A stretch of DNA of 63,927 nucleotides from an uncultured Candidatus Saccharibacteria bacterium (GCA_964401295.1 CAYNXX010000003.1:1-63927); one strand, 5' to 3'; shown: positions 5,109-60,562, counted from the first letter of the stretch. A program made the numbers and translations. The notes: generated by a model not told the origin, from the letters alone.

Positions 5109-5162
5109 TATGGGCTGCGCCGAAGCTCCTTAAACAACCAAACAAAAAAGAGGAGAAGACAA

Positions 5163-5728: not shown

Positions 5729-5757
5729 AAAGAGGCGACGAAGTCGCCTCTTTTTGC
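5729..5757 (+). terminator. Intrinsic terminator of the 5163 ORF
   Basis: AAAGAGGCGAC-GAA-GTCGCCTCTTT hairpin followed by a T-run. Confidence 0.7.
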
Positions 5758-5783
5758 TGAATATTTATTTTATTTAAAGCGAT

Positions 5784-5822
5784 GCCGCCCCGCGCCTTTT
5801 GCCACAAAAGGCGCGGGGCGGC
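5784..5822 (-). terminator. Very stable GC-rich hairpin downstream of groEL
   Basis: Perfect 17-bp stem GCCGCCCCGCGCCTTTT / AAAAGGCGCGGGGCGGC with a 5-nt loop, 15 nt after the groEL stop. No strong U-run follows. Confidence 0.5.
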
Positions 5823-5837
5823 ATATCAATCGCTTGT

Positions 5838-7481
<1,644 letters not shown>

Positions 7482-7624
7482 TTATGGAGCATCCGGAGGC
7501 AAAATTACTTGGTTTACCGCCTTGATCGGGAAAATTTTGCCGAGGGATATGGGCAAGTTTTGCTGCTGGAGTAAAACGAGCGGCTCCTAAAAATTAAGTT
7601 TTCCGAATATTAATTCCTATTATA

Positions 7625-8923: not shown

Positions 8924-11764
8924 CTACAAGAACTCTTTCAGATACTGTCCGGTGTAGCTTTTTTTGCGGCGCGCTATTTCTTTCGGCGTTCCTTCGGCGA
9001 CTATCTCTCCTCCACGCTCGCCTCCTTCCGGTCCCAAATCAATTATCCAATCTGAATTTTTAATAAAGTCCAAATTGTGCTCTATGACCACAACCGTATT
9101 GCCTTTCTCAACAAGGCTGCATAAAACCTGAACAAGTTTTCTCACGTCTTCAAAATGCAAACCAGTTGTCGGCTCATCCAAAATGTAAAGTGTTTTTCCG
9201 GTAGTTGTACGCGAAAGCTCGGTGGCAAGTTTGATCCTTTGCGCCTCGCCGCCGGAAAGCGCTGGAGCGGGCTGGCCTAGCTCCACATAGCTCAAACCGA
9301 CTTCATCCAGGACGCGAAGCTTCTGTTCAAGGCCAGGGATATTCTGGAAAAATTGTTTTGCCTCCTCAACTGTCATCGTAAGAACCTGTGCAATATTTTT
9401 ACCGCGATACTCAATTTCTAAAGCATCTTTGTTGTAACGGGTACCGTGACATTCCTGGCATTCAACATAAACATCCGGCAAAAAATACATTTCAATGCGC
9501 CGCAATCCTTGACCCTCGCAAGCTTCACATCTACCGCCCTTAAGGTTAAAGCTAAAGCGGCCTGGGTCGTAACCTCTCACCCTCGCTTCGCGCGTTTTCG
9601 CAAAAAGATCGCGGATATAAGCGAAAGCGCCGGTGTAGGTTGCGGGATTGGAACGCGGCGTGCGGCCTATGGGCGATTGATCTACCAAGACCACCTTATT
9701 GAAATTATCATCGCCGGTGATCTCTTTGTATTCGCCCGGTTCTTCCTTGGCATTGTAAAATTTTCTTAAAAGGGCTTTTGCGAGAATATCGTTCATCAGC
9801 GAGCTTTTTCCGGAACCCGAAACACCGCTGACACAAACTAGCTTGCCAAGCGGAATTTTAACCGTGATATTTTTAAGATTATGCTCTTTCGCGCCCTTGA
9901 TGATTAAATATTTTTCCCTGACCTGGAGTCTTGCGCGACTGGAAACTTCTACTTTTTTGCGGCCGGCTAAATAATCGCCGGTCAAAGTTTTAGATTTTTT
10001 TAATTCCTGCGGCGTGCCGGAAAAAATTATACGTCCGCCATGCTTACCCGCGCCAGGACCGACATCAACAACCCAATCGGCCGACAAAATTGTCTGTGGA
10101 TCGTGCTCAACTACAATAATACTATTGCCCAATTCCTTTAATTTTTTGAGCGTCGCTATTAGACGGCCTTGATCGCGCGCGTGAAGCCCTATGGAAGGTT
10201 CGTCCAATATATATATAACGCCGGTAAGCTGGGACCCGATTTGCGTCGCAAGGCGGATTCTTTGCTCCTCGCCTCCGGCCAAAGTTCCCGCCTTACGGCT
10301 CAATGTCAAATAATCCAAACCAACATCAACGAGAAACTGAAGTCTGTTTAAAATTTCTTTGATTATACCAGGGGCTATTTTTAATTCCTCTTCTTTAAAT
10401 TTTGTCTGCCCGTTTTGTGGGTTTAAAAGGTCTCTAAAAAATTCCTGCGTTTTTGTAATGGGCATCTCTGTAACTTCATGTATATTTTTACCTGCCACGG
10501 TTACGGCCAGCGCCTCTGGCCTCAAGCGTTTTCCCCCGCATGCTTCGCATTTTTTTTCAATCATATATCGCTCTATTTCCTGGCGTGTGTATTCGGAATC
10601 GGTTTCATGGTATCGTCGCTGGAGATTCGGGATAACGCCTTCGAACCGGCCGTCTCCGTTAAAAATAATTTCGGTTATTTTTTGTGGCAAATCTTTAAAC
10701 GGTTCATCTAGCGAGAATTTATATTTTTCGGCAAGCTCCGACAATTGCCACAAATACCAGCCTTGACGGCCGACTCTATGCGATGCTCTCATCCACGGCC
10801 GGATTGCGCCTTCGGAAATGCTCAAATTTTTATTTGGAATAACCAATTCGGGGTCAACTTCTAGCTTTTCTCCCAAACCAGTGCATGCTGGGCAGGCACC
10901 GAATGGAGAATTAAAAGAGAAAAGCCGCGGCTCGATTTCAGGCAAGGAAATATTGCATTCTTCACAGGCAAATTGCTCGCTGAAAAGCTGATCTTTATAT
11001 TTTATCTTTTGAACCGTTCCTTCTTCTGCTGTGACATGAGACTGCGAGATTGTGGCCGTTCCTTTGCCAACTTTGAGCGCCTGCTCAATTGAATCAACCA
11101 GACGCGGCCTGTCAAAATTTTCCTCAACAACCAACCGGTCAACCACAACGTCAATATCGTGTTTTTTCTTACGATCCAATTCTCTTGCCATTGCTTCTTC
11201 AACGCGCTCGATAACGCCGTCGACGCGCACCCTTATAAAACCTGCTCGTTGAATCTCATCCAGAATGCCGCGATGCTCTCCTTTTTTGCCGCGCACAACC
11301 GGACCTAAAACAATTATTTCAGTTCCACGCGGAGCCTTTTGCACGGCTTCAACAATCTGCTGGCTATTTTGCCTGCTAACCTTCTTTCCGCAATTCGGAC
11401 AATGCGGATGACCAATTCTGCCGAAAAGCAAACGAAAATAATCATATATCTCGGTGATTGTGCCGACGGTTGAACGCGGGTTATGTGTTCCTTTTCTCTG
11501 GTCAATGGCAATGGCTGGGCTTATGCCTTCTATTTTTTCAACGTCTGGTTTATCCATCACGCCTAAAAATTGGCGCGCATATGCGGACAAACTTTCTACG
11601 TAACGACGCTGGCCCTCGGCGTACAAAGTATCAAAAGCCAACGAAGATTTTCCGGATCCAGAAATTCCTGTAATAACCACGAGCTTGTTGCGAGGCAAAT
11701 CAACATTAACATTTTTAAGATTGTGCACCCTGGCCCCGCGGATTTTAATAATGTCTTTTGTCAT
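8924..11764 (-). CDS. uvrA: Excinuclease ABC subunit A
   Basis: Two ABC ATPase modules ([20 protein letters not shown]), zinc fingers, 946 aa. Confidence 0.98.
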
Positions 11765-11897
11765 AAATGGCTTATTATACTTCTAATTTAGGGGGTTTGC
11801 AAGGGGGTGGTGTCCTTGAACCACCGATTAAGATGCGGTAATGCTCCAGCTGCACAAATTTCAATTGCAAAACGGACTAAATAAAATAAAAAATCAA

Positions 11898-11920
11898 TGT
11901 TTAAAATATCACTTTAGACA
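11898..11920. repeat. Degenerate copy of the 21-bp palindrome family, embedded in a longer 35-bp inverted repeat (11892-11926)
   Basis: TGTTTAAAATATCACTTTAGACA versus TGTTTAAAGTGTCACTTTAAACA (3 mismatches). The flanks AATCAATGT / ACATTGATT also pair. Confidence 0.45.
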
Positions 11921-11964
11921 TTGATTTAAAAGCGCCCAATCCGCTAATCGGCGGAGAGGACGCT

Positions 11965-12360
11965 TTAATTTTGAATCGGGGGGAACCTAACTATTTCCCA
12001 ATCGCCGTTTCTTGTAGTATATTCTATGGTCTTTATTCCGTACTTTCTCGCAAGTTCTATACACGCCGCATCACTATCGTCGCGCCACGCGCATGGACGA
12101 GCATAAACGAACCTGCCAGTTCTCCACCGACCCGCAACAGTCAAACGCGCGCCGGCAAGCCGCTTTTTGTTGGCGCGGCCAAACGCATGCTCTTCGGCAT
12201 GGACGCCGCGGTTGCCATCTCCGTGATTCCAACCCCAGCTGAAAATGCCATGCCTGTCACTAAGAACTGCCGCAACCTGAACCCGCGTTGTGGAACGTAC
12301 CAGAAGATCAAGCGCAAGTTCGCGCGGACTCTTGTTGGTGTTCAACCGTCTCGCCTCCAA
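11965..12360 (-). CDS. Small cytidine/deoxycytidylate-deaminase-like zinc protein (atypical motif spacing)
   Basis: It has HAEEHA (H-A-E) and ARPC-x8-C...GIKTIEY instead of PCxxC. The tracked start is TTG. A GGAGG SD (12353-12357) points to the TTG at 12345 as the real start. The region is GC-rich. Confidence 0.5.
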   Translation of the reverse strand: MEARRLNTNKSPRELALDLLVRSTTRVQVAAVLSDRHGIFSWGWNHGDGNRGVHAEEHAFGRANKKRLAGARLTVAGRWRTGRFVYARPCAWRDDSDAACIELARKYGIKTIEYTTRNGDWEIVRFPPIQN

Positions 12361-12425
12361 TTTTTTATTGTTAATGACGGCTTATTTTATACTAAATACC
12401 TAATATTGTAAAGATGCCACGCGTA

Positions 12426-12450
12426 ACAAAAAGCCGACTAATGTCGGCTT
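12426..12450 (-). terminator. Intrinsic terminator after the 12487 ORF
   Basis: AAGCCGAC-TAAT-GTCGGCTT hairpin, followed by T5 on the minus strand. Confidence 0.6.
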
Positions 12451-12486
12451 GCCCGCCGAAGTTTTAACAAAGGAGGGCTTTAAAAC

Positions 12487-12867
12487 TTAATGCTTATGCT
12501 CATCGCAATAACAAACTACGGCTCGCCAGTTAATATGGCAACGCCTCTGCCGCGCATACTTTCTTGAGAGTTTTGCGAGCGCCCGCCGGTACCCGGGCAT
12601 TTCCCTTTCTTTGGAATAACGCGAAACATCGCCATCCAAAACCTTAAAACAGATTGCCAGCGATTCATCCTGGAAAAGCGTGAATACATCGCGGCATCCG
12701 CAGCCGATGGCTTTCAAGAATAACGGCATCTGGATATTAGACTGGCGCCGCATATCATCAAAAGATGCCGGCGGCTCCGCAAAACTTTTTTCATATTCAC
12801 GCAGTTCTTCCTCGGTAAGATTATTCCGCAAAAGCGCGTCAAGATCTTTCTGCCAGACAAGACGCAT
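12487..12867 (-). CDS. Hypothetical protein (GC-rich island; Cys/His-rich C-terminus CHINW..VVCYCDEHKH)
   Basis: AAGGAG SD 5 nt upstream of the ATG, with its own promoter-like TTGACC-N17-TATGGT and terminator. Confidence 0.55.
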   Translation of the reverse strand: MRLVWQKDLDALLRNNLTEEELREYEKSFAEPPASFDDMRRQSNIQMPLFLKAIGCGCRDVFTLFQDESLAICFKVLDGDVSRYSKEREMPGYRRALAKLSRKYARQRRCHINWRAVVCYCDEHKH

Positions 12868-48040: not shown

Positions 48041-50773
48041 CTATCCGCTAGGCGTAGACGATGCCTGATCAGCTCCGGCCGGCTGCGCGGCGCTAGTGCT
48101 TGTCGATTGGGAATCGTTTACAGTTGGCGATTGCGTAGAGCTCGTTGTGCTAACACCTGCAGCTGTTGTAGTTGCGTTCTCGCTTGCCACACCGCTAGTT
48201 GTGGACGTGGCAATAGATGTAGTGGTGATTGTAGATGTGGTTGTGGTTGTAGCGGTGGGAGTAGACGTAGCGGTGCCAAGCGAGATTATATCGCCGGTGA
48301 TCGTGACGCCGCTCTCCGCGCCGCCCGCAGCTGCGCCATCGGGCGCAGCTGCGGGCGCCAAAGCAGAACTGGTAGAGCTTGCCGAAACGCATTCGCCCTG
48401 AACCAGTGACCAAATGCCGTTTTCAATTTGCGCGCACCAGATTTTGCCGGTTGCCTTGTCAACCATTTCAAGACCTCCTACGCGCGCGGTCCTAGCGAAC
48501 AATTTATCAACCACAAGCTGGCGCAAAGACAAAACGCCATCTTTTATCGTGCCGCCGATGGCCGCCAAAAAATCTTCAAAACCACCCGCAGTACCGGTTA
48601 AGAAACCCTTCAACTGACTAAACAGCGACGCATCGCTGGAAGCGGAGCCAGAAGTAAGGGCATAATTGGAATTTTCCGTACTGCTCGACACAACAATGCC
48701 GATGCCCTGATATTCCTTGCCTTGATCGGTCGGCCAATTACGCCAGTCAAAACGAGGCGCGCTAAGCCGCCATGAAACTTCAAGCGGCTTGTCGCCGAAA
48801 ATAATCAGGCGGTTATTTGCCGGATCTTTTTTATAAGAAACCTTAGCGCCATCCTCGGCCGAGAGCAAAACGCTCAATAAATCCATCTTCTCTCCGAAAT
48901 CTGTAACACGTTTGAATACCCATAAATCAGAGCCTTTCTTGGTCTTATTAAAATCAATAACATAGGCAAATAATCCCTCTTCTAAGCTCGGCAAAAGCTT
49001 GGCATTGCCGGCAACTTCTTCTTTAAGGCCAAGCATACTTGGCCCATAAGTTGCGTAAAGTAAATTATCGATGCTGTACAGCGGGTCCTGAACGCCAAAA
49101 GTAATTTTTGAATTGGCGCCTCCGTCGCCGATTATCAAATTAGTCGTGCTGGCGCTGGTTACCGCGCTGATGGTAAATGCGCTGGTCGCGGAGCGCCACA
49201 TCCTGAGCGGATCAGTCGTCCCAAACTGAATAGCGCTTGAAGAAGCAATCGGCGAGCTGTCAGCAACCGTAAGCAATGTTCCAGGTTGTGTCGTGCCGAT
49301 ACCGACACGTTTATTGGTGCTATCGAAAGTAACATAAGGTGTATTGGTACTATATGTGGCGATCTGAAGAGAGGTCGTAGAATCAGTATCTTGTGGCCTA
49401 ATACGCCCTCCGGCTTTTATCATGAAATCTGGATTGCTATTAAACGCAAATTGGGCGGTGCCGCTAGTATCTCTAATATTAATAAATCCTGCAGCGCCCA
49501 TCTGAATGTAGAGGTTATCATTACTTCCTTGGTATATCCCCCCACCCGTTGGTGCGCTGACGTCAGCGCTATTTCTAAAACGGATCCCTCGATTCCCCGT
49601 CCAATCTCCGTTATCTAGGGCCAGAATTCCACCTACGATATCCAATTTTGCTGACGGTGCTATCGTCCCAATCCCGACTTTGCCGCCTAAGGTTGCGAGC
49701 GTTGTGGTCGCGGTAGTGATTGCGGTTCCAACAACATGCAAGGTGCTAGACGCCTGCGTTGTCCCGATGCCTAAACGATTGTTAGTGTTATCCCAAAAGA
49801 AGTTAGCATTGTTTTGAGCAATAACTCCGCTCACGCCGGCAAACAAAACAGAACCAGAAGTCAGCCCTGAAATAGTCGTGCTTGCGGTTGATAAGGTTCC
49901 TGCCGCAGTAACATTGCCCGAGGAATCAACAAGAAACTTCTGCGTACCATTCACCGCCGCTCCGAAAAGCGTCCAGCCTGCCGTGGCGTTGACCGGGTTG
50001 ATATAGATAGAGCCTTGCGATACGCCGGTGCCTGTCGGCAATGCGTCAAAGGTTATCAAACCGTCTGCATTGTCAGCAACGTCGCTTCGCAAAAATTGGG
50101 TTGAATCCAGATTATCCAATTTATCCGCATCAAACGCTGCGGGTGCGGCACCGAGTTTTTTGCGTGGAATCATTTCTGAATCAGAACCAACGGTAACGCC
50201 AAGCCACAAAGTTTGGCCGAAATCAATGCTCGCCAAACTCGTAAGAGTTCCCAGCATTGTTGAAAATAATCCGGATTTGGTATATATTTGGTTCGTAACG
50301 GTATCGCCATTTGACCAAGTGGAAAATGTGCTATAAACGCAGATAAAATTATTCGTTGTGTCAACCGATTTTATAACCGCGGACTCTTTTTTATTCGTAT
50401 CCCAGAGATATTGGCCTGCCGCCAAGGTGTTTTCGTTGGTGTTATTAGTGTATGCTACTTTGTCGTCGCCGCCACAGTTAGTTGCATCAGACTTAGTAAA
50501 AGTTATGTTTGTGTCTGTGAAAAGCGCGGATGCGATCCAAGATTCGGTCCAAATCGCGATTCCCCCGCCGGCCGCGGCGTAAAGCTTGAAAACCATATCC
50601 CGCGTCGCGTCCGCGACCGCCACTCCGGTTGAATCAGTAAGTTTGCCCTGATAATTTAGCTCGGGGTTGAAAGCGGCGCGCGAAATTTGATTGGCTCCAA
50701 AAATAAGTCCGCCAAATATAGCTACGACTACGACTAAAATTATTGTTATTTTATTTTGGAACCATTTTTCCAT
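48041..50773 (-). CDS. Large N-terminally anchored surface fibre protein with tail-fibre-like motifs and an S/T/A-rich tail
   Basis: N-terminal TM segment. It has three xxxGIGTxxxxxxLxV motifs (NNRLGIGTTQASSTLHV, GGKVGIGTIAPSAKLDI, NKRVGIGTTQPGTLLTV). The C-terminal 120 aa or so are low-complexity S/T/A. Confidence 0.6.
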   Translation of the reverse strand: MEKWFQNKITIILVVVVAIFGGLIFGANQISRAAFNPELNYQGKLTDSTGVAVADATRDMVFKLYAAAGGGIAIWTESWIASALFTDTNITFTKSDATNCGGDDKVAYTNNTNENTLAAGQYLWDTNKKESAVIKSVDTTNNFICVYSTFSTWSNGDTVTNQIYTKSGLFSTMLGTLTSLASIDFGQTLWLGVTVGSDSEMIPRKKLGAAPAAFDADKLDNLDSTQFLRSDVADNADGLITFDALPTGTGVSQGSIYINPVNATAGWTLFGAAVNGTQKFLVDSSGNVTAAGTLSTASTTISGLTSGSVLFAGVSGVIAQNNANFFWDNTNNRLGIGTTQASSTLHVVGTAITTATTTLATLGGKVGIGTIAPSAKLDIVGGILALDNGDWTGNRGIRFRNSADVSAPTGGGIYQGSNDNLYIQMGAAGFINIRDTSGTAQFAFNSNPDFMIKAGGRIRPQDTDSTTSLQIATYSTNTPYVTFDSTNKRVGIGTTQPGTLLTVADSSPIASSSAIQFGTTDPLRMWRSATSAFTISAVTSASTTNLIIGDGGANSKITFGVQDPLYSIDNLLYATYGPSMLGLKEEVAGNAKLLPSLEEGLFAYVIDFNKTKKGSDLWVFKRVTDFGEKMDLLSVLLSAEDGAKVSYKKDPANNRLIIFGDKPLEVSWRLSAPRFDWRNWPTDQGKEYQGIGIVVSSSTENSNYALTSGSASSDASLFSQLKGFLTGTAGGFEDFLAAIGGTIKDGVLSLRQLVVDKLFARTARVGGLEMVDKATGKIWCAQIENGIWSLVQGECVSASSTSSALAPAAAPDGAAAGGAESGVTITGDIISLGTATSTPTATTTTTSTITTTSIATSTTSGVASENATTTAAGVSTTSSTQSPTVNDSQSTSTSAAQPAGADQASSTPSG

Positions 50774-50797
50774 ACTTTTTTGTCCTACGTTTTAAAT

Positions 50798-50818
50798 GTT
50801 TAAAGTGTCACTTTAAAC
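50798..50818. repeat. Perfect 21-bp palindrome GTTTAAAGTG-T-CACTTTAAAC, copy a
   Basis: Exact match to the copies at 54714, 59596 and 60472. Pairing extends to 50795-50821. It lies 25 nt upstream of the start codon at 50773. Confidence 0.9.
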
Positions 50819-52431
50819 ATTGGGGCGTCGTTTCTAGAAAGTTGCTGAATTAATCTTATTCGCGACGGCTTATCCTGTTGTCTGGTCGGCGGGATTTGCG
50901 CCGATGTTAAGATTGATCTTTGGGGCGTTGACCGCGCAACGGCCCGCACTTGCGCCGGTGCCTGCGGCATATGTGCAGTCTGAATAGCGGGTCGGCGCAG
51001 GATCGGCTGATGCGCAGATGGCGCCTGTGACGCGGGCGCCGCTTTATTACGCAATTTTTTTAATTTTTTCGCGGCGAGCAATAAAATCAGCAATAGTAAT
51101 ATATATGGAAGCCATCGCCAGATTCCCGGGCGAACCGGCTGTGGCGCTGGTGCCATAGCTGCCAGCAAAATCTCTATTTCCCCTGCCATGCGTTTTCTGA
51201 CCTGATTTTTAAAATCCATCACGCTGATGTAAAGCGGATAAGTTATTGGGCTATCGGGTGGAAAAATTCTTGCCTCGTATGCGGTTTTATCACCATTGAT
51301 GCGCAAAATAAAGGAAAATAATCTTCTCGTTGCCAGCGCCTGAGCCAGCGAAGCCTGCTGATTTTCCAATCCACTCTGATCTGTAGATTTGACATCTGCA
51401 TTACGGTCCTGCGGTTTTTCCAAAGTAACCAGTATGGTTTTTAAAACTTTCGGTGCTTTTTCATAGGCAAGTTTTACCGTAATCGGTGGACCTATCTGCG
51501 CCTGTACTTTTCCCTCGATCATCGGCAAACGTTTTCCTTCCTGCCAGAATTCAAAATCGGATAACTGCAGCGCTTTAAGTTCGGGCAGAATCCCTGCGGT
51601 TGGCGGAAAAAGTTCGGGGGGCACAGTTGTCGGCGCGCCGGGCGTGGCGAACGCGATCGCGCCAGATGCATACTTGCCAGATTTATCATAGGCGAAAGCC
51701 GTATAATAATAACCCACGCCGTTGATCAAACCATTATCAACAAACGATTCGCCATTAGAATTATAGATAACTTCGCCGTCGTAGAGATCCTGTGGATAAA
51801 AGAAAGTGCTGCGCAAAATTCTCACTCCTTTGAAATTTGGATCCTTCGGATTTTGCCAGGTTAAATTTACCTGCCCATCGCCGGCCACCGCCTGGAAATT
51901 TTGCACGTTTGGCGGTGGCGCTGGCACAAATAATGTTCTAAAGGTTTTATCCGTGGTAAAGCCCAACCTGTTTTTGTTATCTCGCGCTTCAATCTTGAAG
52001 TGATATAAAGTGTCTTGGTTTAAATCTATAAGCGCAACCGAGTGTTCGGTGGAAGGTTTTATTTCGGCAATCGTTTCAATTTCATATTCGGCGGTGCGTC
52101 CCAAGAAAAATTGTGAAATAGCCGGCTTTGACGTTTTCCAAGAAATAATCGCGCTGTTATAACTTGGCCTTACAACAATATCCGTGATACGCGGGGGAAA
52201 TATATCCACGAATCCTCCTCCCGGGATGGACACAGGACAATCCGTAGGACAGTTCGTTGAGTTTTCTCCCGACTCGCAAATACCATTGCCGCAGACTGGC
52301 CCGACAACACTAGCTACGACATCTTGCGTAATAATCACTTTGTCCGAAGTTAAATCAGCGCTCGTTTCTGAAAACCCCGTCAACGAAGCCGCAAATGCAA
52401 ATATTAAAATGTAAATCAAGATCTGCTTCAT
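50800..52431 (-). CDS. Secreted/anchored protein with FN3-like domains, a C-terminal TM segment and a P/Q/A-rich tail
   Basis: Signal peptide, Cys knot CGNGICESGENSTNCPTDC, FN3-like PPPNVQNFQAVAGDGQVNLTWQNP...YYYTAFAYD, TM segment WLPYILLLLILLLAA. The last 6 codons and the stop lie inside palindrome copy a. Confidence 0.65.
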   Translation of the reverse strand: MKQILIYILIFAFAASLTGFSETSADLTSDKVIITQDVVASVVGPVCGNGICESGENSTNCPTDCPVSIPGGGFVDIFPPRITDIVVRPSYNSAIISWKTSKPAISQFFLGRTAEYEIETIAEIKPSTEHSVALIDLNQDTLYHFKIEARDNKNRLGFTTDKTFRTLFVPAPPPNVQNFQAVAGDGQVNLTWQNPKDPNFKGVRILRSTFFYPQDLYDGEVIYNSNGESFVDNGLINGVGYYYTAFAYDKSGKYASGAIAFATPGAPTTVPPELFPPTAGILPELKALQLSDFEFWQEGKRLPMIEGKVQAQIGPPITVKLAYEKAPKVLKTILVTLEKPQDRNADVKSTDQSGLENQQASLAQALATRRLFSFILRINGDKTAYEARIFPPDSPITYPLYISVMDFKNQVRKRMAGEIEILLAAMAPAPQPVRPGIWRWLPYILLLLILLLAAKKLKKLRNKAAPASQAPSAHQPILRRPAIQTAHMPQAPAQVRAVARSTPQRSILTSAQIPPTRQQDKPSRIRLIQQLSRNDAPMFKVTL

Positions 52432-54686
52432 TTGGTCTTTGCTGGATTTTGATTGGAATTTTGATCCGGACTTGGCGCCGTCAATTTTTCGGCATCAGCC
52501 TTCAATTTATCTGCGTAAAACGGGTAAACCTCGATCGCCTTTTGATATATATCTTTGGCCGTATTTTGATCCCCGAGCTGCCCGAAAAGCCAGGCCGTTG
52601 CTTCAAAAAATGTAATCTCTGGGCTGGCTTCCTGACGCATACGCGCTATGGTTTCGGGACTAAATCCCGGTAATTGTTTCAATAATTCTTTAACCCCGCC
52701 CATCCTCTCTGTGTATTTGAGCTCAATTCCGTTTTTAAAGTGCTCCGCGGCTTTCTGTGATTGACTAGAGCGCAGGTATACGATACCCATAATTCTTTGC
52801 ATTTCAAAAGCATCTTGAGGTCTTTGTAATGAAAGTTGATAGCCGCGGTTAAAATACTCTTCGCCTTTGGCGTAATCTCCTTCATAGATGTAAAAACGGC
52901 CCAAAATATAATAGTATTGCAGCCATTGTTTGTTAAAAGCCAGGGCCTTTTTTGATATATCCTCTCCTTCGCGCAGAAAATCTTTATTTTGACTGACCAG
53001 ATAGAGCCATTCGTCAGATCTAGCGGCAGCTTCATAGAAATTAAGGTACCTTATCTCCGGCTGATCCAAACTTTTCAGCAGTTCCGGCCGGAACTGCGCA
53101 AGATTTTCCAAGATTTCTTTTTGCCATTGGCCGCCGGCCTGCTGATCAAGAACTGTAAGATCGCGCCCGACCATATTAAGAAGGATTTCTCTTCTGTACT
53201 GAGTGGTGCGATCCATGGCGCGCTGGTAATACTTAAGCGCGCCCGGAAAATCTTTCTGTTCCATAAAAAATCCACGCACCGTATCATAGCTTGCGAGGAC
53301 CGATTTTACATTGACAAAATATATGCTTAAAATCGCCAATGGCAGAAACGCTATAATGATTGCCTGTTTTAACGGCGCCAGATTCACTGGGAAACGCCGC
53401 TCGACGAAATAATTATTATTAACAAAGGCAAGTACGAGAAATAAAACAAGATAAGTGCTAAGAGTATCAAATGCAAAAATATTCTGTAAAAAATATGAAA
53501 TAAATAACGATATTAAGAGGAAAGTCGGAAGCTCCCCCATTTTTTTCCTACCACGCCATAAAGCCGCGAAGGCTAAAACTAGAATTAAAATATAACTTAA
53601 TGCGCCAACCATTCCGGTCTCGGCCATAAAATTTAAAATCTCATTATGCGCATCGCTAAAAACGTAATAAGCCTGAATATATTGCTGATAACGAGCTTCG
53701 AAATATTTGTAATAAAGATAGTTGAAAGATTCGGCGCCCCAACCAAATATAGGTCTGTCGCGCCATGCTTTGATCGCTGTTTCCCATCCTGGGAAACGAC
53801 CCATTATGCTGGCCGGATTAAATCCCTGCAAGAATCTAGCGCCTAACGATCCTTGTTTAAAAAGGATTTTTGATTCAAACACAATAAGCAAGAGCAATAA
53901 AATGCTTATTGCCAATGCGCCGATTAAAATATATTTTCTGAGGTTTTTTCTTGAATTAAGAAGCGGTAGGAAATAGAAAAAACCCGTTATTGCAAGCCCC
54001 AATAAAAGACCCAGGAGCGCAGACCTCCCGCCAGACAAGAAAAGAGCGACTGCTTCAAGTGCGGCAAGCGCAAGCCAGACATTTCTTAAAATTTTTTCCT
54101 TTTCAACGGCAGCAAGATATAAAGCCAGAAAAATAGTCATTGCCAGAAAAAAACCGAAATAAACTGGATTGGAAAGAGTCCCGCTTATTCTGCCCGTCTG
54201 AATACCCACCCCGTAAAATCCAGCTATGCCTAGTTTTTGGACGAATCCAGCTAAGGTGGAAACAAAACTTATCAGCACTATTGCGCGCAAAGGAAACAAC
54301 CAACTATTATATGTCTGGAAAAGACCTGATGCGATTACAAAAAAAACTAAATAATGCAAAATTGTCACAAGGCCGCCACCACCCTCTAAACTTCCCCAAA
54401 AACTTCGTATAATGTTAAATCCAGTGATAGAAGATATAAGCATTGCGGCGAAAAATATCAGTAACATGCCCGTCAATAAGGTAAATTTTGGGGCATAACG
54501 GCTATCTATTAACAGCAAGATCAGATATAAAATTGCCACCACCTCAACTGCGGTTCTAAAATATATGGTTTTTGGATATTCCGAGAAAGATAAACCGAAT
54601 GGTCCCAAAACCAATGGCGCGAATAAGGTAATAAAAATCCCTATTTTTGCGGCTTCGAAAATATATTTTTTAATATTCTTCTCCAT
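52428..54686 (-). CDS. Second O-antigen ligase family (Wzy_C) membrane protein with C-terminal TPR repeats
   Basis: SGGRSALLGL and DAHNEILNFMAETGMVG motifs, with the same architecture as 37069-39336. ATGA overlap with the downstream FN3 gene. Confidence 0.8.
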   Translation of the reverse strand: MEKNIKKYIFEAAKIGIFITLFAPLVLGPFGLSFSEYPKTIYFRTAVEVVAILYLILLLIDSRYAPKFTLLTGMLLIFFAAMLISSITGFNIIRSFWGSLEGGGGLVTILHYLVFFVIASGLFQTYNSWLFPLRAIVLISFVSTLAGFVQKLGIAGFYGVGIQTGRISGTLSNPVYFGFFLAMTIFLALYLAAVEKEKILRNVWLALAALEAVALFLSGGRSALLGLLLGLAITGFFYFLPLLNSRKNLRKYILIGALAISILLLLLIVFESKILFKQGSLGARFLQGFNPASIMGRFPGWETAIKAWRDRPIFGWGAESFNYLYYKYFEARYQQYIQAYYVFSDAHNEILNFMAETGMVGALSYILILVLAFAALWRGRKKMGELPTFLLISLFISYFLQNIFAFDTLSTYLVLFLVLAFVNNNYFVERRFPVNLAPLKQAIIIAFLPLAILSIYFVNVKSVLASYDTVRGFFMEQKDFPGALKYYQRAMDRTTQYRREILLNMVGRDLTVLDQQAGGQWQKEILENLAQFRPELLKSLDQPEIRYLNFYEAAARSDEWLYLVSQNKDFLREGEDISKKALAFNKQWLQYYYILGRFYIYEGDYAKGEEYFNRGYQLSLQRPQDAFEMQRIMGIVYLRSSQSQKAAEHFKNGIELKYTERMGGVKELLKQLPGFSPETIARMRQEASPEITFFEATAWLFGQLGDQNTAKDIYQKAIEVYPFYADKLKADAEKLTAPSPDQNSNQNPAKTK

Positions 54687-54713
54687 TATTATTTATTATT
54701 TTATTATTTATCT

Positions 54714-54734
54714 GTTTAAAGTGTCACTTTAAAC
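54714..54734. repeat. Perfect 21-bp palindrome, copy b
   Basis: Exact copy, 28 nt upstream of the start codon at 54686 and 9 nt downstream of the stop at 54743. Confidence 0.9.
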
Positions 54735-54742
54735 ATTAAATT

Positions 54743-55501
54743 TTAATTTGGCGTGGCTGTTACGATTATCATAGCTGTATAAGTTCCTGCTGTTTGAGTA
54801 TTGGCGGATCCAGACATTGCCTCTACTTTAATAGTTGTATTGGTGCCGGACGGCTGATTTGCAAAGAGCGAATTGGAAATATTTACGTCTGAGGTGGCAA
54901 AATTATACCAGCAAGCATCCGACGTATTACCAGAACCAACTCCGCATGTTGAACCATTATCAAGGAACTTTTGAACAACATCGGTTCCTTCGGGCGTAAA
55001 TCCGAATTCAGAAGTATTGTTGGCAATAGAAAAGCTAAAATCAGACGTTCCGGATTGAGCCGGCGTATAATCGGCAAAACTATTCCCTCCGCTTTTAAGC
55101 GCTGGCGCCGTAGAGGCCCGCGCAGTAAGCGTATAACCAGCCAAATTGTCGGTTATAACGGTCCAGCTGGCGGATCCTGTGGCCGCTCCCCCGCCTATAC
55201 CTGGAATAACCTGAGACATAGTGATATCCGGAGGCGCACTGATGGAAATAAAGGTTTCAGCCATTTGTTGATAACCAGATTTTATTTTATAATTCGCGCT
55301 TTGCGATTCATCGCTGCCTATTTCACCGATTGTATCTTTGCTTAAATAACTTGATGATTTTTGATCAATGCCTCCTATATTTATTGAATCTGATGGTATG
55401 CGATAATTTTGGCTGGACATAAAAGCCAAAACGGGATTTACCGCAAAAAAAGCGGAAATCCCGAATAAAAGTGATATAAATGTGGTGATAGTTTTGTTCA
55501 T
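54743..55501 (-). CDS. Secreted surface protein, paralogue of 56670-57347 (WxL-like by architecture)
   Basis: Signal peptide and N-terminal SxNYxI...SANYKI motifs. Blocks shared with the paralogue include ITMSQVIPGIGGGAATGSASWTV, FADYTPAQSGTSDF, FLDNGSTCG...DACWYNFAT and GTYTAMIIVTAT. Confidence 0.5.
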   Translation of the reverse strand: MNKTITTFISLLFGISAFFAVNPVLAFMSSQNYRIPSDSINIGGIDQKSSSYLSKDTIGEIGSDESQSANYKIKSGYQQMAETFISISAPPDITMSQVIPGIGGGAATGSASWTVITDNLAGYTLTARASTAPALKSGGNSFADYTPAQSGTSDFSFSIANNTSEFGFTPEGTDVVQKFLDNGSTCGVGSGNTSDACWYNFATSDVNISNSLFANQPSGTNTTIKVEAMSGSANTQTAGTYTAMIIVTATPN

Positions 55502-55557
55502 TGCATATATGTTGTAAACACGTTGTAGACATTATCTTAGAGACTGCACGCAGAGAC

Positions 55558-55586
55558 TTGACATAGAATATGGGGGGGGGCATTAT
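55558..55586 (+). promoter_or_regulatory. Promoter-like element with a G9 homopolymer inside the 17-bp spacer
   Basis: TTGACA (55558-55563), spacer TAGAATATGGGGGGGGG (G9 at 55572-55580), CATTAT (55581-55586). Confidence 0.3.
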
Positions 55587-55655
55587 CAAAATGAAGGCTC
55601 TTGACGCAAAAGTGGCTTAATTTTTACTGTGGGCTACCGATGCGCGGGTCTTCAT

Positions 55656-55690
55656 CCTCCGACTGCAATCGGAGGGTTTATTTTATTTTT
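55656..55690 (+). terminator. Plus-strand intrinsic terminator inside an all-minus-strand gene array
   Basis: CCTCCGA-CTGCAA-TCGGAGG followed by GTTTATTTTATTTTTT. On the minus strand no U-run follows. Confidence 0.45.
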
Positions 55691-56666
55691 TAAATTTTAT
55701 TTCTATCTTGCGCAATAATAAAATAATTATAAATACTATTAAAATTATTGCCGCGAGGCCAACAGCCATGATTTTCCAGGGAACCACCCAAAAATCAACT
55801 TCTTTTTGGTCAATAATATTCTCATATCCCCTGTTTAAACTTAGCGTTGCCGTATAACGTCCCCAAAGCCAGGGCTTATCCCACGTAATCTCGCGCGTCC
55901 GCAAAGAGGTCGGCATTGAGAAAAAAGAATCAACGGGCGCTTCTCCTACCTCTTTACCTAAAAGATTTTTTATTTTGATTGCGCCGTATGGCACAACGTG
56001 AATACTACCGTCATTTTGGTAGGCCAAACTGAAAGAGATCGGTCCTTTTGAATAAAATCTCGCCTGATTTGTAAGTTTAAAACTTTTTAAATAAGCATTC
56101 GCTTGCACTTCGCCGTTCACTCTTACAAAAAATAAACTGGCAATACGAGTTTTCACCGTAACGCTTCCGCTGACATTTTCTGCATTTTCTGTGCTCGTGG
56201 CTCCAGGATTGGTAGATACCAGTATTGCTCCATATCTTCCACCCGGTTCTGCGTCTGACGGCACGTTGACACTTACCTTAAAATTAATTCTCTGGCCGTG
56301 AGCCAATGTAAACTCCGTTATTTCCGGCTTTAAATAATCTTTAAGAGAATAGAGACCCTTTTGATCGCCCAAAAGAACAACTGTCTGCGTCGGATCATAC
56401 GAACCGGTAAAATCTTCTGTTTGTATTTTAAAACTCATCGTCCTGCCCAGTCTATTCATAACGTAAAAATCTTTCACTGCGCTTTCGCCAGGATTTAAGA
56501 AGAATTCGTTTCTCGTTGGACCGACAACAAAATCATTAAGATTGGTGGGTACATCGGGAACTCCCTCTATGCTGTATGCCAAAATAGACGGCGCGCCAAA
56601 AAACATACCGCTTAATATCAACAGAGAACCAATGAAAAATATTTTATTTTTGGTCCAGATGCGCAT
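55683..56666 (-). CDS. Two-domain beta-rich surface protein with a C-terminal TM anchor (DUF916/DUF3324-like architecture)
   Basis: Signal peptide and two Ig-like-looking halves (FLNPGESAVKDFYVMN..., PSDAEPGGRYGAILVS; second half ...GRYTATLSL...FWVVPW). It ends in a C-terminal TM segment plus a basic tail, LLRKIEIKFKK. Confidence 0.5.
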   Translation of the reverse strand: MRIWTKNKIFFIGSLLILSGMFFGAPSILAYSIEGVPDVPTNLNDFVVGPTRNEFFLNPGESAVKDFYVMNRLGRTMSFKIQTEDFTGSYDPTQTVVLLGDQKGLYSLKDYLKPEITEFTLAHGQRINFKVSVNVPSDAEPGGRYGAILVSTNPGATSTENAENVSGSVTVKTRIASLFFVRVNGEVQANAYLKSFKLTNQARFYSKGPISFSLAYQNDGSIHVVPYGAIKIKNLLGKEVGEAPVDSFFSMPTSLRTREITWDKPWLWGRYTATLSLNRGYENIIDQKEVDFWVVPWKIMAVGLAAIILIVFIIILLLRKIEIKFKK

Positions 56667-56669
56667 AAT

Positions 56670-57347
56670 TTATGGGTTATCCGTTGCCGTAGCAGTAATC
56701 TGACTCTGATATGTTCCGGATGTCTGCACTTTTGTTGCTCCGGTTTGCGCCCTGAATTTTATAACCTCGGCTTCTCCGCTTGGAGAGGTAGAGGCAGAAC
56801 GATTAATAACCGTGTAGCCAGCAGTGGCAAAACCAAGCCAGCAGGTATCCGTTCCGGCACTTGCGCCAGTACCGCAGGCACTACCATTGTCCAAAAATTT
56901 CGCAACTGTATCCGCGGCAGTCTGGGCTTCAACTGTATAGCCGAAAGCAGAGGCGGCTGAAGCAACGGTGAAAGCATAATCCGGCGTACCGGACTGCGAT
57001 GGACTATAATCCGAAAAACTATCCGTACTGCTGTGTAAGGCCGGCGTTGAACTGGAATTGGCAAGGCTAAAACTGAATCCTGTGCCGTTTGCGGTTTTGA
57101 CGGTCCACGTACACTGACCCGTAGCCGTGCCGCCACCAAGACCAGGAAGGGTTTGCGACATCGTAAAATTAGCGCAGTCGGTAATGGATATTGCCGAACT
57201 TACCACTTGCGTTATGACAACCGCATCGCTCGCGGTCGCGCCGGCGAGATATTCCGGCTCAAAAAGAATCCCGCTGCCAAGGATAAGAAGCAATAATGCG
57301 AAAGAAATGCTTAATACTTTTGAAATGCCTAATATTTTTATTGTCAT
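56670..57347 (-). CDS. Secreted surface protein, paralogue of 54743-55501 (WxL-like by architecture)
   Basis: Signal peptide; FTMSQTLPGLGGGTATGQCTWTV, FSDYSPSQSGTPDY, FLDNGSACG...DTCWLGFAT, GTYQSQITATAT. Confidence 0.5.
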   Translation of the reverse strand: MTIKILGISKVLSISFALLLLILGSGILFEPEYLAGATASDAVVITQVVSSAISITDCANFTMSQTLPGLGGGTATGQCTWTVKTANGTGFSFSLANSSSTPALHSSTDSFSDYSPSQSGTPDYAFTVASAASAFGYTVEAQTAADTVAKFLDNGSACGTGASAGTDTCWLGFATAGYTVINRSASTSPSGEAEVIKFRAQTGATKVQTSGTYQSQITATATDNP

Positions 57348-57369
57348 ATTTTATTTTTAATTTTTAAAT

Positions 57370-58317
57370 TTAGTTTTTCAGCGGAACCATCATATATATA
57401 TAGCTCTGCTGAGCGACTTCGCGGAAAATCGGACGGATAATCCCAGATGTTTCATCTTGCGGTTCAATCGTGACCTCATCAGAAAAAGATTTTGAAAGTT
57501 TATCTTTTAACACTTTATCCTTATCGCTTGACGGCACCACCACCAATCCTTCTTTGCTGCCGGTAATGCGGGTGATGCCCACGTCTTCTCTGAAAGTATC
57601 AAAGCGTTGTTGAATATCATTTATAATTCCCTGCTCCAGCTGATTTGTCTGATTCACGGCATCTCCGGTTGCTAGCAAGTTATTTTGTGTCGGCGGTGGC
57701 GATTTTCCGAAAACGAGAGATTTGGCGCTATTGAAAATATTTTTAATACTCTGCCAAAAACTTGAAGCATCGGCCAAAGCATTTGTCTCACTGATAGAAC
57801 CGGTAAGATTTATTACGCTTGCAATGATACGTTGCAAATTTTCTATTTCCAGCCTCCCATAATTTTGGACAGTATTTCCCGTTGGCACTAATGAATGGTT
57901 GTTGGCATATGGAATCGCGACCCATATCCCAAACAGAATAATCGTCAATAAAATTGCTGCGCCAATGTGTATTAATGGATTAATCGTTTTAAGCAGTCCG
58001 GCGGTATTATATTGTAAATTCGGCTCGCCGACCGGTAAATTTATCGGCGGATATGATTCCAGTTTCTTAATGATTTTAGGTTGTAAAGAAATCTCCATCA
58101 ATGTTTGTTTCTTTATGCTTTTCGTTTCCGGCGCATACATTCCAATTGTTTTAATATATTCTTTTAGCCACTCTTCCGTAGTTACCCAATTTCTGCCAAT
58201 TTTTACTGATTTCAATTTTCCTTGCCGCGCGCGCAAACTTAAATATTCCTGCGAATAATCGCATTGACTAGATGCTTGCGTAAGAGAAATATATTTTATA
58301 TTTTTTATATTTTCCAT
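57370..58317 (-). CDS. Membrane-anchored protein with an N-terminal excisionase/MerR-type helix-turn-helix
   Basis: YISLTQASSQCDYSQEYLSLRARQGKLKSVKIGRNWVTTEEWLKEY (HTH_17-like), one TM segment (IGAAILLTIILFGIWVAI), and an extracytoplasmic C-terminus of about 170 aa. Confidence 0.5.
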   Translation of the reverse strand: MENIKNIKYISLTQASSQCDYSQEYLSLRARQGKLKSVKIGRNWVTTEEWLKEYIKTIGMYAPETKSIKKQTLMEISLQPKIIKKLESYPPINLPVGEPNLQYNTAGLLKTINPLIHIGAAILLTIILFGIWVAIPYANNHSLVPTGNTVQNYGRLEIENLQRIIASVINLTGSISETNALADASSFWQSIKNIFNSAKSLVFGKSPPPTQNNLLATGDAVNQTNQLEQGIINDIQQRFDTFREDVGITRITGSKEGLVVVPSSDKDKVLKDKLSKSFSDEVTIEPQDETSGIIRPIFREVAQQSYIYMMVPLKN

Positions 58318-58331
58318 TGTTTATATTTATA

Positions 58332-58363
58332 CTTCATATCGGATATCGGAATCCGATATGAAG
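58332..58363. other. 12-bp perfect inverted repeat between the SEDS gene and the HTH-TM gene
   Basis: CTTCATATCGGA-N8-TCCGATATGAAG. Either a terminator or an operator candidate. Confidence 0.4.
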
Positions 58364-58466
58364 ACCTTTGAAATTATTTTATTTTCTCTCGATCATAAAG
58401 AGCAGTCAATAGCCTGATATGTGGATAACTAAAAACCACTCCATAGTGGACTGGTAACTTGAAAGT

Positions 58467-59555
58467 TTAATGAGTTTTTATACTTTGCAGAATTCCCAAT
58501 GCAACATAGTTCATTATCAGCCCAGATCCGCCATAACTGACGAATGGCAAGGGAATGCCAACTACCGGGAAAAGACCTAAATTCACAGCTATATTGAGAA
58601 AAGACTGCGAAGCCAAAACAATAACAAAACCAACCGCAAAAAGTCTAACAAAATTATTTGATGCCGTAATTGCTATATGCAAAATACGCCACCAAAGTAA
58701 TAAAACCAGGATTAGAAGAACGCTCACGCTCAAAAAACCGAATTCTTCAGCAATAGAGGCGAAAATGAAGTCGGTTTGGTTTTCTGGTAAAAAACCGTAC
58801 TGGGTTTGTGGCCCCTGACCAAAACCGCGCCCAAATAATTCGCCAGACCCAACGGCTATTTTAGATTGAGCCTGCTGCCAACCAATCCCTAAATAATCTT
58901 TTTGTGGATAAATAAAGGTTAAAATCCTTTCTTTCTGATAATTTTTAAGGACGAAAAACCAGCTAAGACTAAAAATAATAATAAATAAAGTACACAATAA
59001 TAAAAAATGCTTAATTTTTATACCAGATGCAAATAAAATACCTATCCACATGCTTCCTAATATTAAAATCTGGCCAATATCCGGACGAAGAAAAATTAAT
59101 ATGGCTGGTATGCCAATATATATTCCTGATATAAATATATGCCTTAAATTGTAAAGCTCAATATGCCTTTGGGAAAAATATTTAGCTAATAATAAAATTA
59201 TAATTATTTTCATCGGTTCGGCTGGATCTAATGAAAATGAACCTATTTTGTACCAGCTTTTTGTTCCCCTAATTTCTGGCACTAAAAAAAATAATCCAAT
59301 AAGCAAAAAAATGCCAATGATATAAGAAAATAAAATAAAAAATGATTCATTCCGTAAAAATCTCCAGTCGGAAAATCCAATCATTATCATTAAAATAATT
59401 CCAGATATGAAAAAAAATAATTGTTTTTCGAAATTAATAAAATTATTAATTCTTAAAGATGAGCTATAAATGGAAATTAATCCAAAAAAAACCAAAAATA
59501 TAGGAATAATTATTATTCCGGGGTCAAATTTTTTAACAGTTTGAATAAGATTCAT
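58467..59555 (-). CDS. SEDS family peptidoglycan polymerase (FtsW/RodA/SpoVE)
   Basis: 10-TM pattern, ...QTDFIFASIAEEFGF..., PLPFVSYGGSGLI. Confidence 0.9.
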   Translation of the reverse strand: MNLIQTVKKFDPGIIIIPIFLVFFGLISIYSSSLRINNFINFEKQLFFFISGIILMIMIGFSDWRFLRNESFFILFSYIIGIFLLIGLFFLVPEIRGTKSWYKIGSFSLDPAEPMKIIIILLLAKYFSQRHIELYNLRHIFISGIYIGIPAILIFLRPDIGQILILGSMWIGILFASGIKIKHFLLLCTLFIIIFSLSWFFVLKNYQKERILTFIYPQKDYLGIGWQQAQSKIAVGSGELFGRGFGQGPQTQYGFLPENQTDFIFASIAEEFGFLSVSVLLILVLLLWWRILHIAITASNNFVRLFAVGFVIVLASQSFLNIAVNLGLFPVVGIPLPFVSYGGSGLIMNYVALGILQSIKTH

Positions 59556-59595
59556 TAATTAAAATTAAATTACTTTATTACTTATTTATTTAAGT

Positions 59596-59616
59596 GTTTA
59601 AAGTGTCACTTTAAAC
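59596..59616. repeat. Perfect 21-bp palindrome, copy c (pairing extends to 59594-59618)
   Basis: Exact copy, 31 nt downstream of the Y1 transposase stop and 41 nt upstream of the SEDS start codon. Confidence 0.9.
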
Positions 59617-59646
59617 ACGTTTTGGTAGTCGCTTTAGGCTTTAGGA

Positions 59647-60393
59647 TCAAGATAGTTCGATAAAAATAGGATCTGTGTGGTATTTTTTCTTCTCTAGATA
59701 ATTTTTGGTTAATTTTTTGAGTTCCTCATTTGTTAAGGCTATGCCGCCGGCGAAACAATCATTTATCCATTGGCGCTCACCCATCAAAAGAGATGTTCTA
59801 GCCCCAAACAGGTCTTGGAAGCTGGAATAAGGATACTGTTCCAAAAAATCAAAAAAATCGTTCCATTCTCCCACTCCAAGCTTTTTCCAATCCGGTTTCC
59901 AAACATCTATTGCGTTTTTAATGTTTATATAAAATATTAGCCTTGCCAACTGAACATCATCCTTACATAATACCAACCTATATGGTCGTTCAAAAACATT
60001 TCCAGTTCTGTGATGTTTATTATTGAAATATTTTGAAAAAGCTGTTTTCATTTTTTGTGTATATTTGGAAATACCATTTTTAGTATAGGGAGAGACAAGC
60101 AAATGGAAATGATCACGGACCAATATAAAACTCAATATATTTACCAATGGAGGATGTTCTCTGGTAATTAGATTCTTCTGTGGTTCTAAACCGTTTAATA
60201 TTGCATGGACAGCCCTAGTAGTGTCTTCTCTATATATATTAAGATTTGGTCTGCCTATATTTGCGGCATACATATAAAATAAAAAGCGGTCTCGATCAGC
60301 CTCATTATCAAAAACTGCCTTAGAGTCTATGCCCCTATTATAGATATGATAAAAGGCTCCTTTTTTAAAAATAGAATTTCGCGAGATAGACAC
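59647..60393 (-). CDS. IS200-like Y1 (HUH) transposase family protein, RAYT-like
   Basis: FYHIYNRGIDSKAVFDNEADRDRFL..., HUH-type DHFHLLV, ...HRTGNVFERPYR..., ARLIFYINIKNAI (the YIHxNP-like region). The gene is flanked on both sides by the palindrome. Confidence 0.65.
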   Translation of the reverse strand: MSISRNSIFKKGAFYHIYNRGIDSKAVFDNEADRDRFLFYMYAANIGRPNLNIYREDTTRAVHAILNGLEPQKNLITREHPPLVNILSFILVRDHFHLLVSPYTKNGISKYTQKMKTAFSKYFNNKHHRTGNVFERPYRLVLCKDDVQLARLIFYINIKNAIDVWKPDWKKLGVGEWNDFFDFLEQYPYSSFQDLFGARTSLLMGERQWINDCFAGGIALTNEELKKLTKNYLEKKKYHTDPIFIELS

Positions 60394-60471
60394 AATGACG
60401 CATTATAACAAGTACGAGGAAAAATACAAAACCATTTTAACCGCTCGAGCGTTTGTGGACTATTTAAAGAT

Positions 60472-60492
60472 CGTTTAAAGTGTCACTTTAAA
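60472..60492. repeat. Perfect 21-bp palindrome, copy d (pairing extends to 60471-60493)
   Basis: Exact copy, 79 nt upstream of the Y1 transposase start and 71 nt downstream of the stop at 60563. Confidence 0.9.
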
Positions 60493-60562
60493 CGAAATGC
60501 CGCTTATTATTTAGCGGCATGAATTATTGCTTATATTACTGATTGTGAATTATTTAAATATA

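Follow-up and report, generated by a model that had tools for sequence, protein, structure and literature searches.

Systems that pair repetitive extragenic palindromic (REP) elements with REP-associated tyrosine transposases (RAYTs) are known in detail chiefly from Proteobacteria, Cyanobacteria and Bacteroidetes, and why cells retain them is an open question. Their gene-plus-palindrome units, the REPtrons, of which E. coli yafM (PDB 4ER8) is an example, are reportedly described in Nunvar 2010, Ton-Hoang 2012, Quentin 2018 (class 2) and Corneloup 2021. Here, we analyse a 63,927-nucleotide stretch of DNA (the window) from an uncultured Candidatus Saccharibacteria bacterium, in which the gene for a 248-aa HUH/Y1 protein lies between two of four identical 21-bp palindromes. 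We estimate at about 70% the probability that this locus is a REPtron/TIRtron-like unit, i.e., a domesticated, single-copy, RAYT-like HUH/Y1 nuclease together with its cognate DNA hairpin. The observations behind this reading are the repeats and their hairpin potential, the family, fold and catalytic residues of the protein, the two-sided flanks and the concerted variation of palindrome and protein among relatives, and the fixed position of the gene. They come from one 64-kb window of one genome, and the comparisons are drawn from homolog loci in other lineages. A full-text search of the literature retrieved no paper on RAYT/REP systems in Patescibacteria. In a previous reading of the same DNA, made by a model without database searches (the sequence-only reading), such systems were said not to be known as characterised in genomes like those of the candidate phyla radiation (CPR).

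The likeness to REPtrons is found at several levels. The HUH/Y1 gene is single-copy in the DNA sampled and apparently vertically inherited, a cognate short palindrome stands on both sides of it with further copies in intergenic gaps, palindrome and protein co-vary between lineages, and the best structural match of the protein is 4ER8 itself. A second group of known REPs consists of perfect palindromes too (PMC8266576). The other described relatives are the TnpAY1 proteins of subclass 2.1 (Quentin 2018, PMC6006769), which correspond to Bertels group 1 (PMC5581495) and are largely the TIRYTs of Di Nocera 2013 (PMC3733652). These are reported to lack REP-like hairpins and to have terminal inverted repeats (TIRs) with a common GGGGWSAS (PMC6006769, PMC3733652). 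Our family resembles them in length (median 238 aa) and in the NHFH, F[QE], YIHLNP and conserved SS tail of its consensus, and in TIRtrons, too, inverted repeats border the gene; some of these repeats are self-complementary, and their families are only moderately abundant. Judged by motifs and length, the family consensus would fit subclass 2.1. The window nevertheless differs from TIRtrons in that its flanks are perfect hairpin palindromes of another sequence, without GGGGWSAS, and in that the protein tail has no helix-turn-helix or DnaA_C-like match in Pfam.

The palindromes and the Y1 protein

We scanned the window for exact and up to three-mismatch matches to the 21-mer, with 100 dinucleotide-preserving shuffles as the null. 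The palindrome, GTTTAAAGTGTCACTTTAAAC (as a count pattern, TGTTTAAAGTGNCACTTTAAACA), is found exactly at 50798-50818, 54714-54734, 59596-59616 and 60473-60493, with none expected and no match in any shuffle. Its centre base is T on the plus strand in all four copies, and the sole further match with at most three mismatches lies at 11899-11919. Copies a to d pair perfectly over 27, 23, 25 and 25 bp (stems of 13, 11, 12 and 12). Copies a, b and c have a common 23-mer, TGTTTAAAGTG-T-CACTTTAAACA, and the outer pair of copy d is C...G where the others have T...A, a two-sided change that keeps the pairing. Folding as single-stranded DNA (ssDNA) gives every copy a stem of 11-12 bp and a loop of 3 nt, with an energy of about -9 kcal/mol (z-scores between -4.3 and -6.4); a 5-bp extension helps the decayed copy, at 11898-11920, to fold as well. 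The 5' foot reads TGTT or CGTT, where REPtrons have the tetranucleotide GT[AG]G.

The genes between 48 and 64 kb are all on the minus strand and each copy lies between two co-directional genes. The four exact copies span 9.7 kb, at and downstream of the Y1 gene, and the decayed copy is alone in the other 54 kb. Most of what the sequence-only reading had said of the repeats holds: the identity of the four 21-mers, the constant centre base, the pairing over 23-27 bp and the three-mismatch relative at 11898-11920. Some details need correction. The fourth copy starts at 60473 and not at 60472; copy d is indeed 79 nt upstream of the Y1 gene and copy c is 30, not 31, nt downstream. Copies c and d do bracket the gene, but the whole set is clustered within those 9.7 kb and not dispersed over the window. 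The copies were also described as always intergenic, which applies to b, c and d; copy a forms the last codons and the stop of an ORF (open reading frame) with an fn3 domain (50800-52431), of which it encodes the C-terminal MFKVTL. Since the ortholog in the closest relative ends differently, the palindrome appears to have taken the place of the gene's former 3' end.

Two ideas on the copies were not retained. We had considered their complementary variable flanks as a sign of selection on stem length or of a palindromic target, and dropped this because the excess is weak (roughly p = 0.08) once the unit is defined as the 23-mer. The uniform orientation of the four copies, with the G-rich minus strand as the likely lagging-strand template and A at the centre, would fit a strand-specific insertion; with n = 4 and a mixed orientation in the closest relative, it is not evidence for one.

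The 248-aa protein has all the IS200/Y1 motifs that had been pointed out in it. Pfam Y1_Tnp (PF01797) matches it at 29.9 bits, for a gathering threshold of 23, in a partial match over residues 84-157, and matches 29 of 30 homologs. In the alignment of these 30 proteins, H16, H95 and H97 are invariant and Y155 (at least 90%), I156 and N160 are nearly so. The profile of this alignment pairs the HUH with PDHVHLL, and Y155 with the catalytic Y132, of ISDra2 TnpA. The protein thus has both the HUH and a putative catalytic tyrosine on alignment, and the sequence-only reading survives the check that it had itself proposed on this point. The AlphaFold (AF2) model has a pLDDT (predicted local distance difference test) score of 88.7, and its best Foldseek match in the PDB is 4er8_A, the E. 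coli RAYT with a REP hairpin, followed by the TnpAs of ISDra2, IS608 and IS200, with 2xma, 2xm3 and 2vjv among the top matches. These matches were given by profile and fold searches; a PDB search with the single sequence returned noise. Relative to core-only TnpAs of about 150 aa, the protein is extended by an insertion of some 45 aa ahead of the HUH and by a tail of some 90 aa at the C terminus.

The gene is single-copy in the window and belongs to a large family (2,515 clusters at 50% identity, E <= 1e-30), whose named matches are Parcubacteria, Nealsonbacteria, Paceibacterota and "Patescibacteria group." This supports the guess, made before the origin of the DNA was given, of a CPR-like host. 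The closest homolog carries the automatic annotation "RayT," and a scan of viral contigs with the Y1 profile found no relatives. The family consensus, of about 238 aa, has NHFH, F-x-G-x-F, YI(H/N)..NP (YIHLNP in distant homologs) and a YxSS tail. The window protein departs from it, with DHFH, FE, YINIKNA and YSS; its Asn comes one position later and the Pro is missing.

Palindromes and gene order in relatives

We recovered the loci of Y1 homologs from 11 other lineages, at 29-49% identity (Table 1). In eight of them, a lineage-specific palindrome, usually of 23 bp, stands on each side of the gene; a ninth (L023) has an array upstream of a gene whose contig ends downstream. The remaining two, L008 and L021, have no perfect flanking palindrome at the Y1 locus. 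The closest homolog (P0002, 49% identity), on the JGI contig L006, is accompanied by the same palindrome core as in the window. Across the nine lineages, the likeness of the palindromes tracks the identity of the proteins, and both arms always change together. For example, P0003, P0004 and P0005 are 57-63% identical and their palindromes have a common TGTT[CT]AAGGT, and P0014 and P0015 are 80% identical with a common GCTTAACT. Neither coincidence of position nor an operator for some unrelated factor can account for such a pattern. Together with the alignment and the 4er8_A match, the pairing of palindrome and Y1 gene in relatives supports the REP/RAYT-type interpretation of the sequence-only reading.

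Two of these loci deserve separate mention. L018 has two Y1 paralogs within 1.5 kb (10001-12731), on opposite strands and with an rRNA adenine dimethylase gene between them, each with its own type of palindrome (AATGTCAAGG-n5-CCTTGACATT and ATCAAGGTT-T-AACCTTGAT). In L021 (a Logan contig of SRR22388328; Y1 at 244-1005, P0008, 39% identity, directly upstream of rodA), a His replaces the catalytic Tyr (QHINIKN). It is possible, from these residues and flanks, that L021 represents a natural case of an inactive enzyme with decayed hairpins.

The position of the gene looks fixed. The window and L006 have 13 orthologs at 42-63% identity in the same order, Y1 included: pilin-like ORFs, Y1, rodA, four paralogous ORFs, Wzy_C and fn3. 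In four lineages (the window, L006, L008 and L021), rodA is the next gene downstream of Y1, and in L008 a single nucleotide separates the stop codon of Y1 from the start codon of rodA; in L013 and L016, Y1 adjoins Wzy_C/TPR and rpoB. The many contigs with P0006, P0015 or P0024 show one context each time, and we found no TnpB-like ORF near the Y1 gene of the window. The same position across about 50% protein divergence, the adjacency to rodA, the single context and the lack of tnpB are the behaviour of a domesticated RAYT and not of an IS200/IS605 element. The Y1 gene thus looks fixed, being single-copy in the sampled DNA, seemingly vertically inherited, and domesticated rather than part of a live insertion sequence (IS).

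The hairpins look as if they were turning over within each lineage. Their centre base is uniform within a genome and differs between genomes (T in 4/4 copies in the window, C or G in 6/6 in L006), and outside the Y1 flanks the two loci have copies in one of seven gaps in common, where about 0.9 is expected by chance. For this reason we withdrew an initial suggestion that the palindromes are conserved site by site. There are also half-arm fragments beside full copies (L013, 9860-10830; L006, 9855-9950, 10815-10832 and 13238-13256), which resemble remnants of nested or aborted events. The uniform centres, the mostly different gaps, and the decayed copies and fragments all fit a turnover internal to each lineage. 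What appears to be conserved, on these comparisons, is the palindrome unit and its pairing with the Y1 protein, not the individual sites. Exact-pattern scans of GTDB genomes and JGI metagenomes gave two and three isolated matches, one of them inside tsaD, which is roughly chance for a 20-mer in hundreds of gigabases; neither the source genome nor close relatives are therefore in those collections.

Table 1. Coordinates of the features in the window, and palindromes at the Y1 loci of relatives
Feature	Sequence or residues	Position in the window	Strand	Remarks
Y1/HUH gene, 248 aa, GTG start	H95-F-H97 = HUH; putative catalytic Y155	59647..60393	-	RAYT-like, apparently nearest TnpAY1 subclass 2.1 (TIRYT-like); Pfam, alignment, AF2, Foldseek
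Putative extended -10-like box	TGtTATAAT	60402..60410	-	8 nt before Y1 GTG; read from sequence
Palindrome copy a		50797..50819, stem to 50795-50821	.	Overlaps final 7 codons and stop of fn3 ORF 50800-52431; 24 nt upstream of 910-aa ORF
Palindrome copy b		54713..54735	.	56-nt gap between PamT-like 252-aa ORF and Wzy_C/TPR ORF
Palindrome copy c	TGTTTAAAGTG-T-CACTTTAAACA	59595..59617	.	91-nt gap between Y1 and rodA; 30 nt downstream of Y1
Palindrome copy d	CGTTTAAAGTG-T-CACTTTAAACG	60472..60494	.	79 nt upstream of Y1 start
Decayed copy	3 mismatches in 21-mer; 5-bp complementary extension tcaat/attga	11898..11920	.	Between uvrA and deaminase-like ORF
Terminator-like hairpin of upstream 132-aa ORF	ATGCCGCT..AGCGGCAT	60497..60520	-	Directly 5' of copy d on - strand; separate from palindrome
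rodA (SEDS)		58467..59555	-	Conserved neighbour downstream of Y1; TIGR02210 340.7 bits
L006 palindrome	Same core as window, centre C or G			2 upstream of Y1 (inverted pair), 1 in Y1-rodA gap, 3 more downstream (two with 1 mismatch or 3 mismatches)
L012 palindrome	TGTTTAAGGT-nnn-ACCTTAAACA			2 upstream, 1 downstream of Y1
L025 palindrome	TGTTCAAGGT-nnn-ACCTTGAACA			2 upstream, 1 downstream of Y1
L022 palindrome	TGTCCGAAGT-nnn-ACTTCGGACA			1 upstream, 1 downstream of Y1, loops inverted
L013 palindrome	TGTGCTTAACT-n-AGTTAAGCACA			3 upstream, 2 downstream of Y1 (five copies)
L016 palindrome	GTTGCTTAACT-n-AGTTAAGCAAC			1 upstream, 1 downstream of Y1, inverted
L018 palindrome	AATGTCAAGG-n5-CCTTGACATT			Both sides of Y1
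L026 palindrome, GTAG-type hairpin (GTAG...CTAC)	GTAGAGGT-TTG-ACCTCTAC			Both sides of Y1; Y1 30% identical to that of the window
L023 palindrome array (ninth lineage)	TGTTCAAGGTG-n-CACCTTGAACA			Upstream of Y1; contig ends downstream

Proposed mechanism and alternative explanations

How would such a pair work? By analogy with E. coli TnpAREP and the TnpAs of IS608 and ISDra2 (PMC3479197, PMC8266576), we infer that the hairpin and the Y1 protein could be linked by binding, cleavage and mobility, possibly to the benefit of the host. When DNA is transiently exposed as a single strand, e.g., on the lagging-strand template, the 23-nt palindrome would fold into its 11-12 bp stem and 3-nt loop. The Y1 protein could then bind the folded hairpin, cut at or near its foot by means of the HUH-bound metal and Tyr155, and rejoin the DNA. 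The outcome would be that the 23-nt unit is copied, moved or homogenised, mostly over short distances. Such an activity could account for the identity of the copies in a genome, for new ones in nearby gene gaps and for the decayed ones left behind. A recent spread of the palindromes is plausible.

Several observations weigh against a REPtron-like nature of the locus or set it apart from known REPtrons. Classical REP systems have tens to hundreds of dispersed copies, whereas here there are few and locally clustered ones in the 64 kb seen (four exact within 9.7 kb and one decayed), and in L013 and L016 the palindromes are confined to the Y1 flanks. The unit of the window, of about 23 bp, AT-rich and with a centre of 1-3 nt, has TGT...ACA at its foot and no 5' GTAG tag, although the relative L026 has GTAG...CTAC. 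Its two flanking copies are in the same orientation, unlike the inverted ones of classical REPtrons and of most relatives examined. The protein, at 248 versus 165 aa, is longer by its pre-HUH insertion and its tail, its Y-motif is Y155-I-N-I-K-N-A where class 2 has Y---NP, it scores 28 bits with the NCBIfam RAYT model (NF047646, REP_Tyr_transpos), whose equivalog cut-off is 80, and its gene is tightly linked to rodA. The Y1 protein of L008 retains the HUH and the Tyr and yet its gene has no perfect flanking palindrome. Finally, a search via RodA for a closer relative gave a best identity of 63%, which is too distant for a comparison of filled and empty sites, and no such pair was found.

A distinctly less probable explanation is that Y1 is a domesticated hairpin- or palindrome-binding factor, with the palindromes as immobile cis-elements, e.g., operators, insulators or processing signals, that would control the rodA/pilin-like/Wzy_C/fn3 cluster. 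If true, such a fixed regulatory role would be the more interesting reading. The gene immediately precedes rodA in four lineages, at 37-49% identity, and is beside Wzy_C/TPR in two more, and every non-flanking copy, in the window and in L006, falls within the same downstream surface-gene cluster. The core of the palindrome is unchanged between these two loci while their orthologs are only 42-63% identical, and in copies b and d the GTGACA within it is picked up as a -35-like match. Small streamlined genomes, moreover, seldom keep useless genes. Fixed elements are hard to reconcile with non-flanking positions that mostly differ between the two genomes at a chance level of overlap, with a centre base that is constant within a genome and differs between genomes, and with decayed copies and half-arm fragments adjoining full ones. 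The promoter-like spacing varies among copies, and known Y1 enzymes bind folded ssDNA, not duplex operators (PMC8266576, PMC3479197).

A related proposal, no more probable, credits the pair with a job in the cell. In CPR of the Parcubacteria type, an ancient Y1 nuclease might have been kept for long beside the rodA/rpoB neighbourhood to serve the cell, by hairpin-dependent control or programmed single-strand rearrangement of a variable surface-gene cluster (pilin-like paralogs, Wzy_C, fn3), and not as a tolerated parasite.

It is improbable that the segment from hairpin to hairpin (~59595-60494) is a live IS of the IS200/IS605 type, with the other copies as its solo ends. The unit of about 900 bp does have two identical hairpins in the same orientation around Y1, like the left and right ends of IS200 and IS608, and the protein has the HUH/Y1 fold and catalytic residues of the IS608 and ISDra2 TnpAs. 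However, its gene keeps a fixed syntenic position across genomes whose proteins are about 50% divergent, is found in one context only on all contigs with close homologs, and is not a multicopy or mobile unit: it is single-copy in the window and has no tnpB. The protein is also much longer, with its insertion and tail, than a core-only TnpAIS200 of about 150 aa, and has YINIKNA in place of the Y---Q motif of subclass 1.1 (PMC6006769).

Slightly less credible still is a role of the palindromes at the RNA level only, as intrinsic terminators or stabilisers of mRNA 3' ends in an operon. Every copy has a co-directional gene on either side and would be transcribed, E. coli REPs stabilise upstream mRNA, and a terminator scan picks up one copy, though on the non-coding plus strand. 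Promoter and terminator scans gave match counts near the shuffle expectation, with an inconsistent geometry across the four copies. The stems are AT-rich, the coding strand has no U-tract after the hairpin, copy d comes directly after a separate and better terminator hairpin, and an Rfam search gave no match at the palindromes. Such a role would also leave the two-sided Y1 flanks of many lineages unexplained. Least likely of all, the palindromes would be operators of an unrelated dimeric transcription factor that are near Y1 by coincidence: a perfect 10+1+10 inverted repeat is typical of operators, the copies are 24-79 nt upstream of start codons and the isolated exact matches on unrelated metagenome contigs are also upstream of genes, but those matches are as few as chance would give, one of them being inside tsaD, a regulon would not be expected to have 21/21 identical positions, the centre base among them, and lineage-specific palindromes stand on both sides of Y1 in eight other lineages.

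If the locus is a REPtron/TIRtron-like unit, the general picture of REP/RAYT systems is unchanged; the layout itself is known from other bacteria. This gene-plus-hairpin layout is present in most lineages sampled, in hosts with very small streamlined genomes. Having stayed beside rodA for long, the pair seems to be either of use to its hosts or difficult to shed. A perfect palindrome of 23 bp, a confidently modelled protein, and natural co-variants of arms and protein make a simple unit that is convenient for studying how Y1 enzymes recognise hairpins.

Other features of the locus

Downstream of rodA, between 54743 and 58317 on the minus strand, the window has four ORFs of 252, 327, 225 and 315 aa, all conserved in L006. 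The 252- and 225-aa ORFs are paralogous, as seen from cross-matches to the L006 orthologs, and the former has weak NCBIfam matches to the CPR Pam pilus proteins PamT and Pam pilin C. The gap between rodA and the 315-aa ORF contains a hairpin with a 13-bp stem, CTTCATATCGGAT..ATCCGATATGAAG (58332-58363), unrelated to the palindrome family. Further downstream, the 910-aa ORF at 48041-50773 (minus strand) has no Pfam match and lies in a stretch with a GC content of 0.51, for about 0.43 elsewhere; a GC-rich perfect hairpin with a 16-bp stem lies inside its coding sequence (48322-48357).

The L026 contig has the gene order of the window (191, 192 and 150 aa, then rodA) without a Y1 gene in the corresponding 63-nt gap (9938-10000), which ends with TGTTTAAAC directly before the rodA ATG. 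There, rodA is followed directly by rpoB-rpoC-ftsK-recA, so that the surface-gene cluster at 48-58 kb of the window is extra relative to L026. This contig has a different Y1 gene 3 kb upstream (entry 6749-7585), flanked by the hairpins of GTAG type. At the other end of the window, two adjacent GC-rich perfect hairpins with stems of 11 and 20 bp (5729-5753 and 5782-5824) lie between the ORFs at 5108-5635 and 5838-7463 and are probably terminators.

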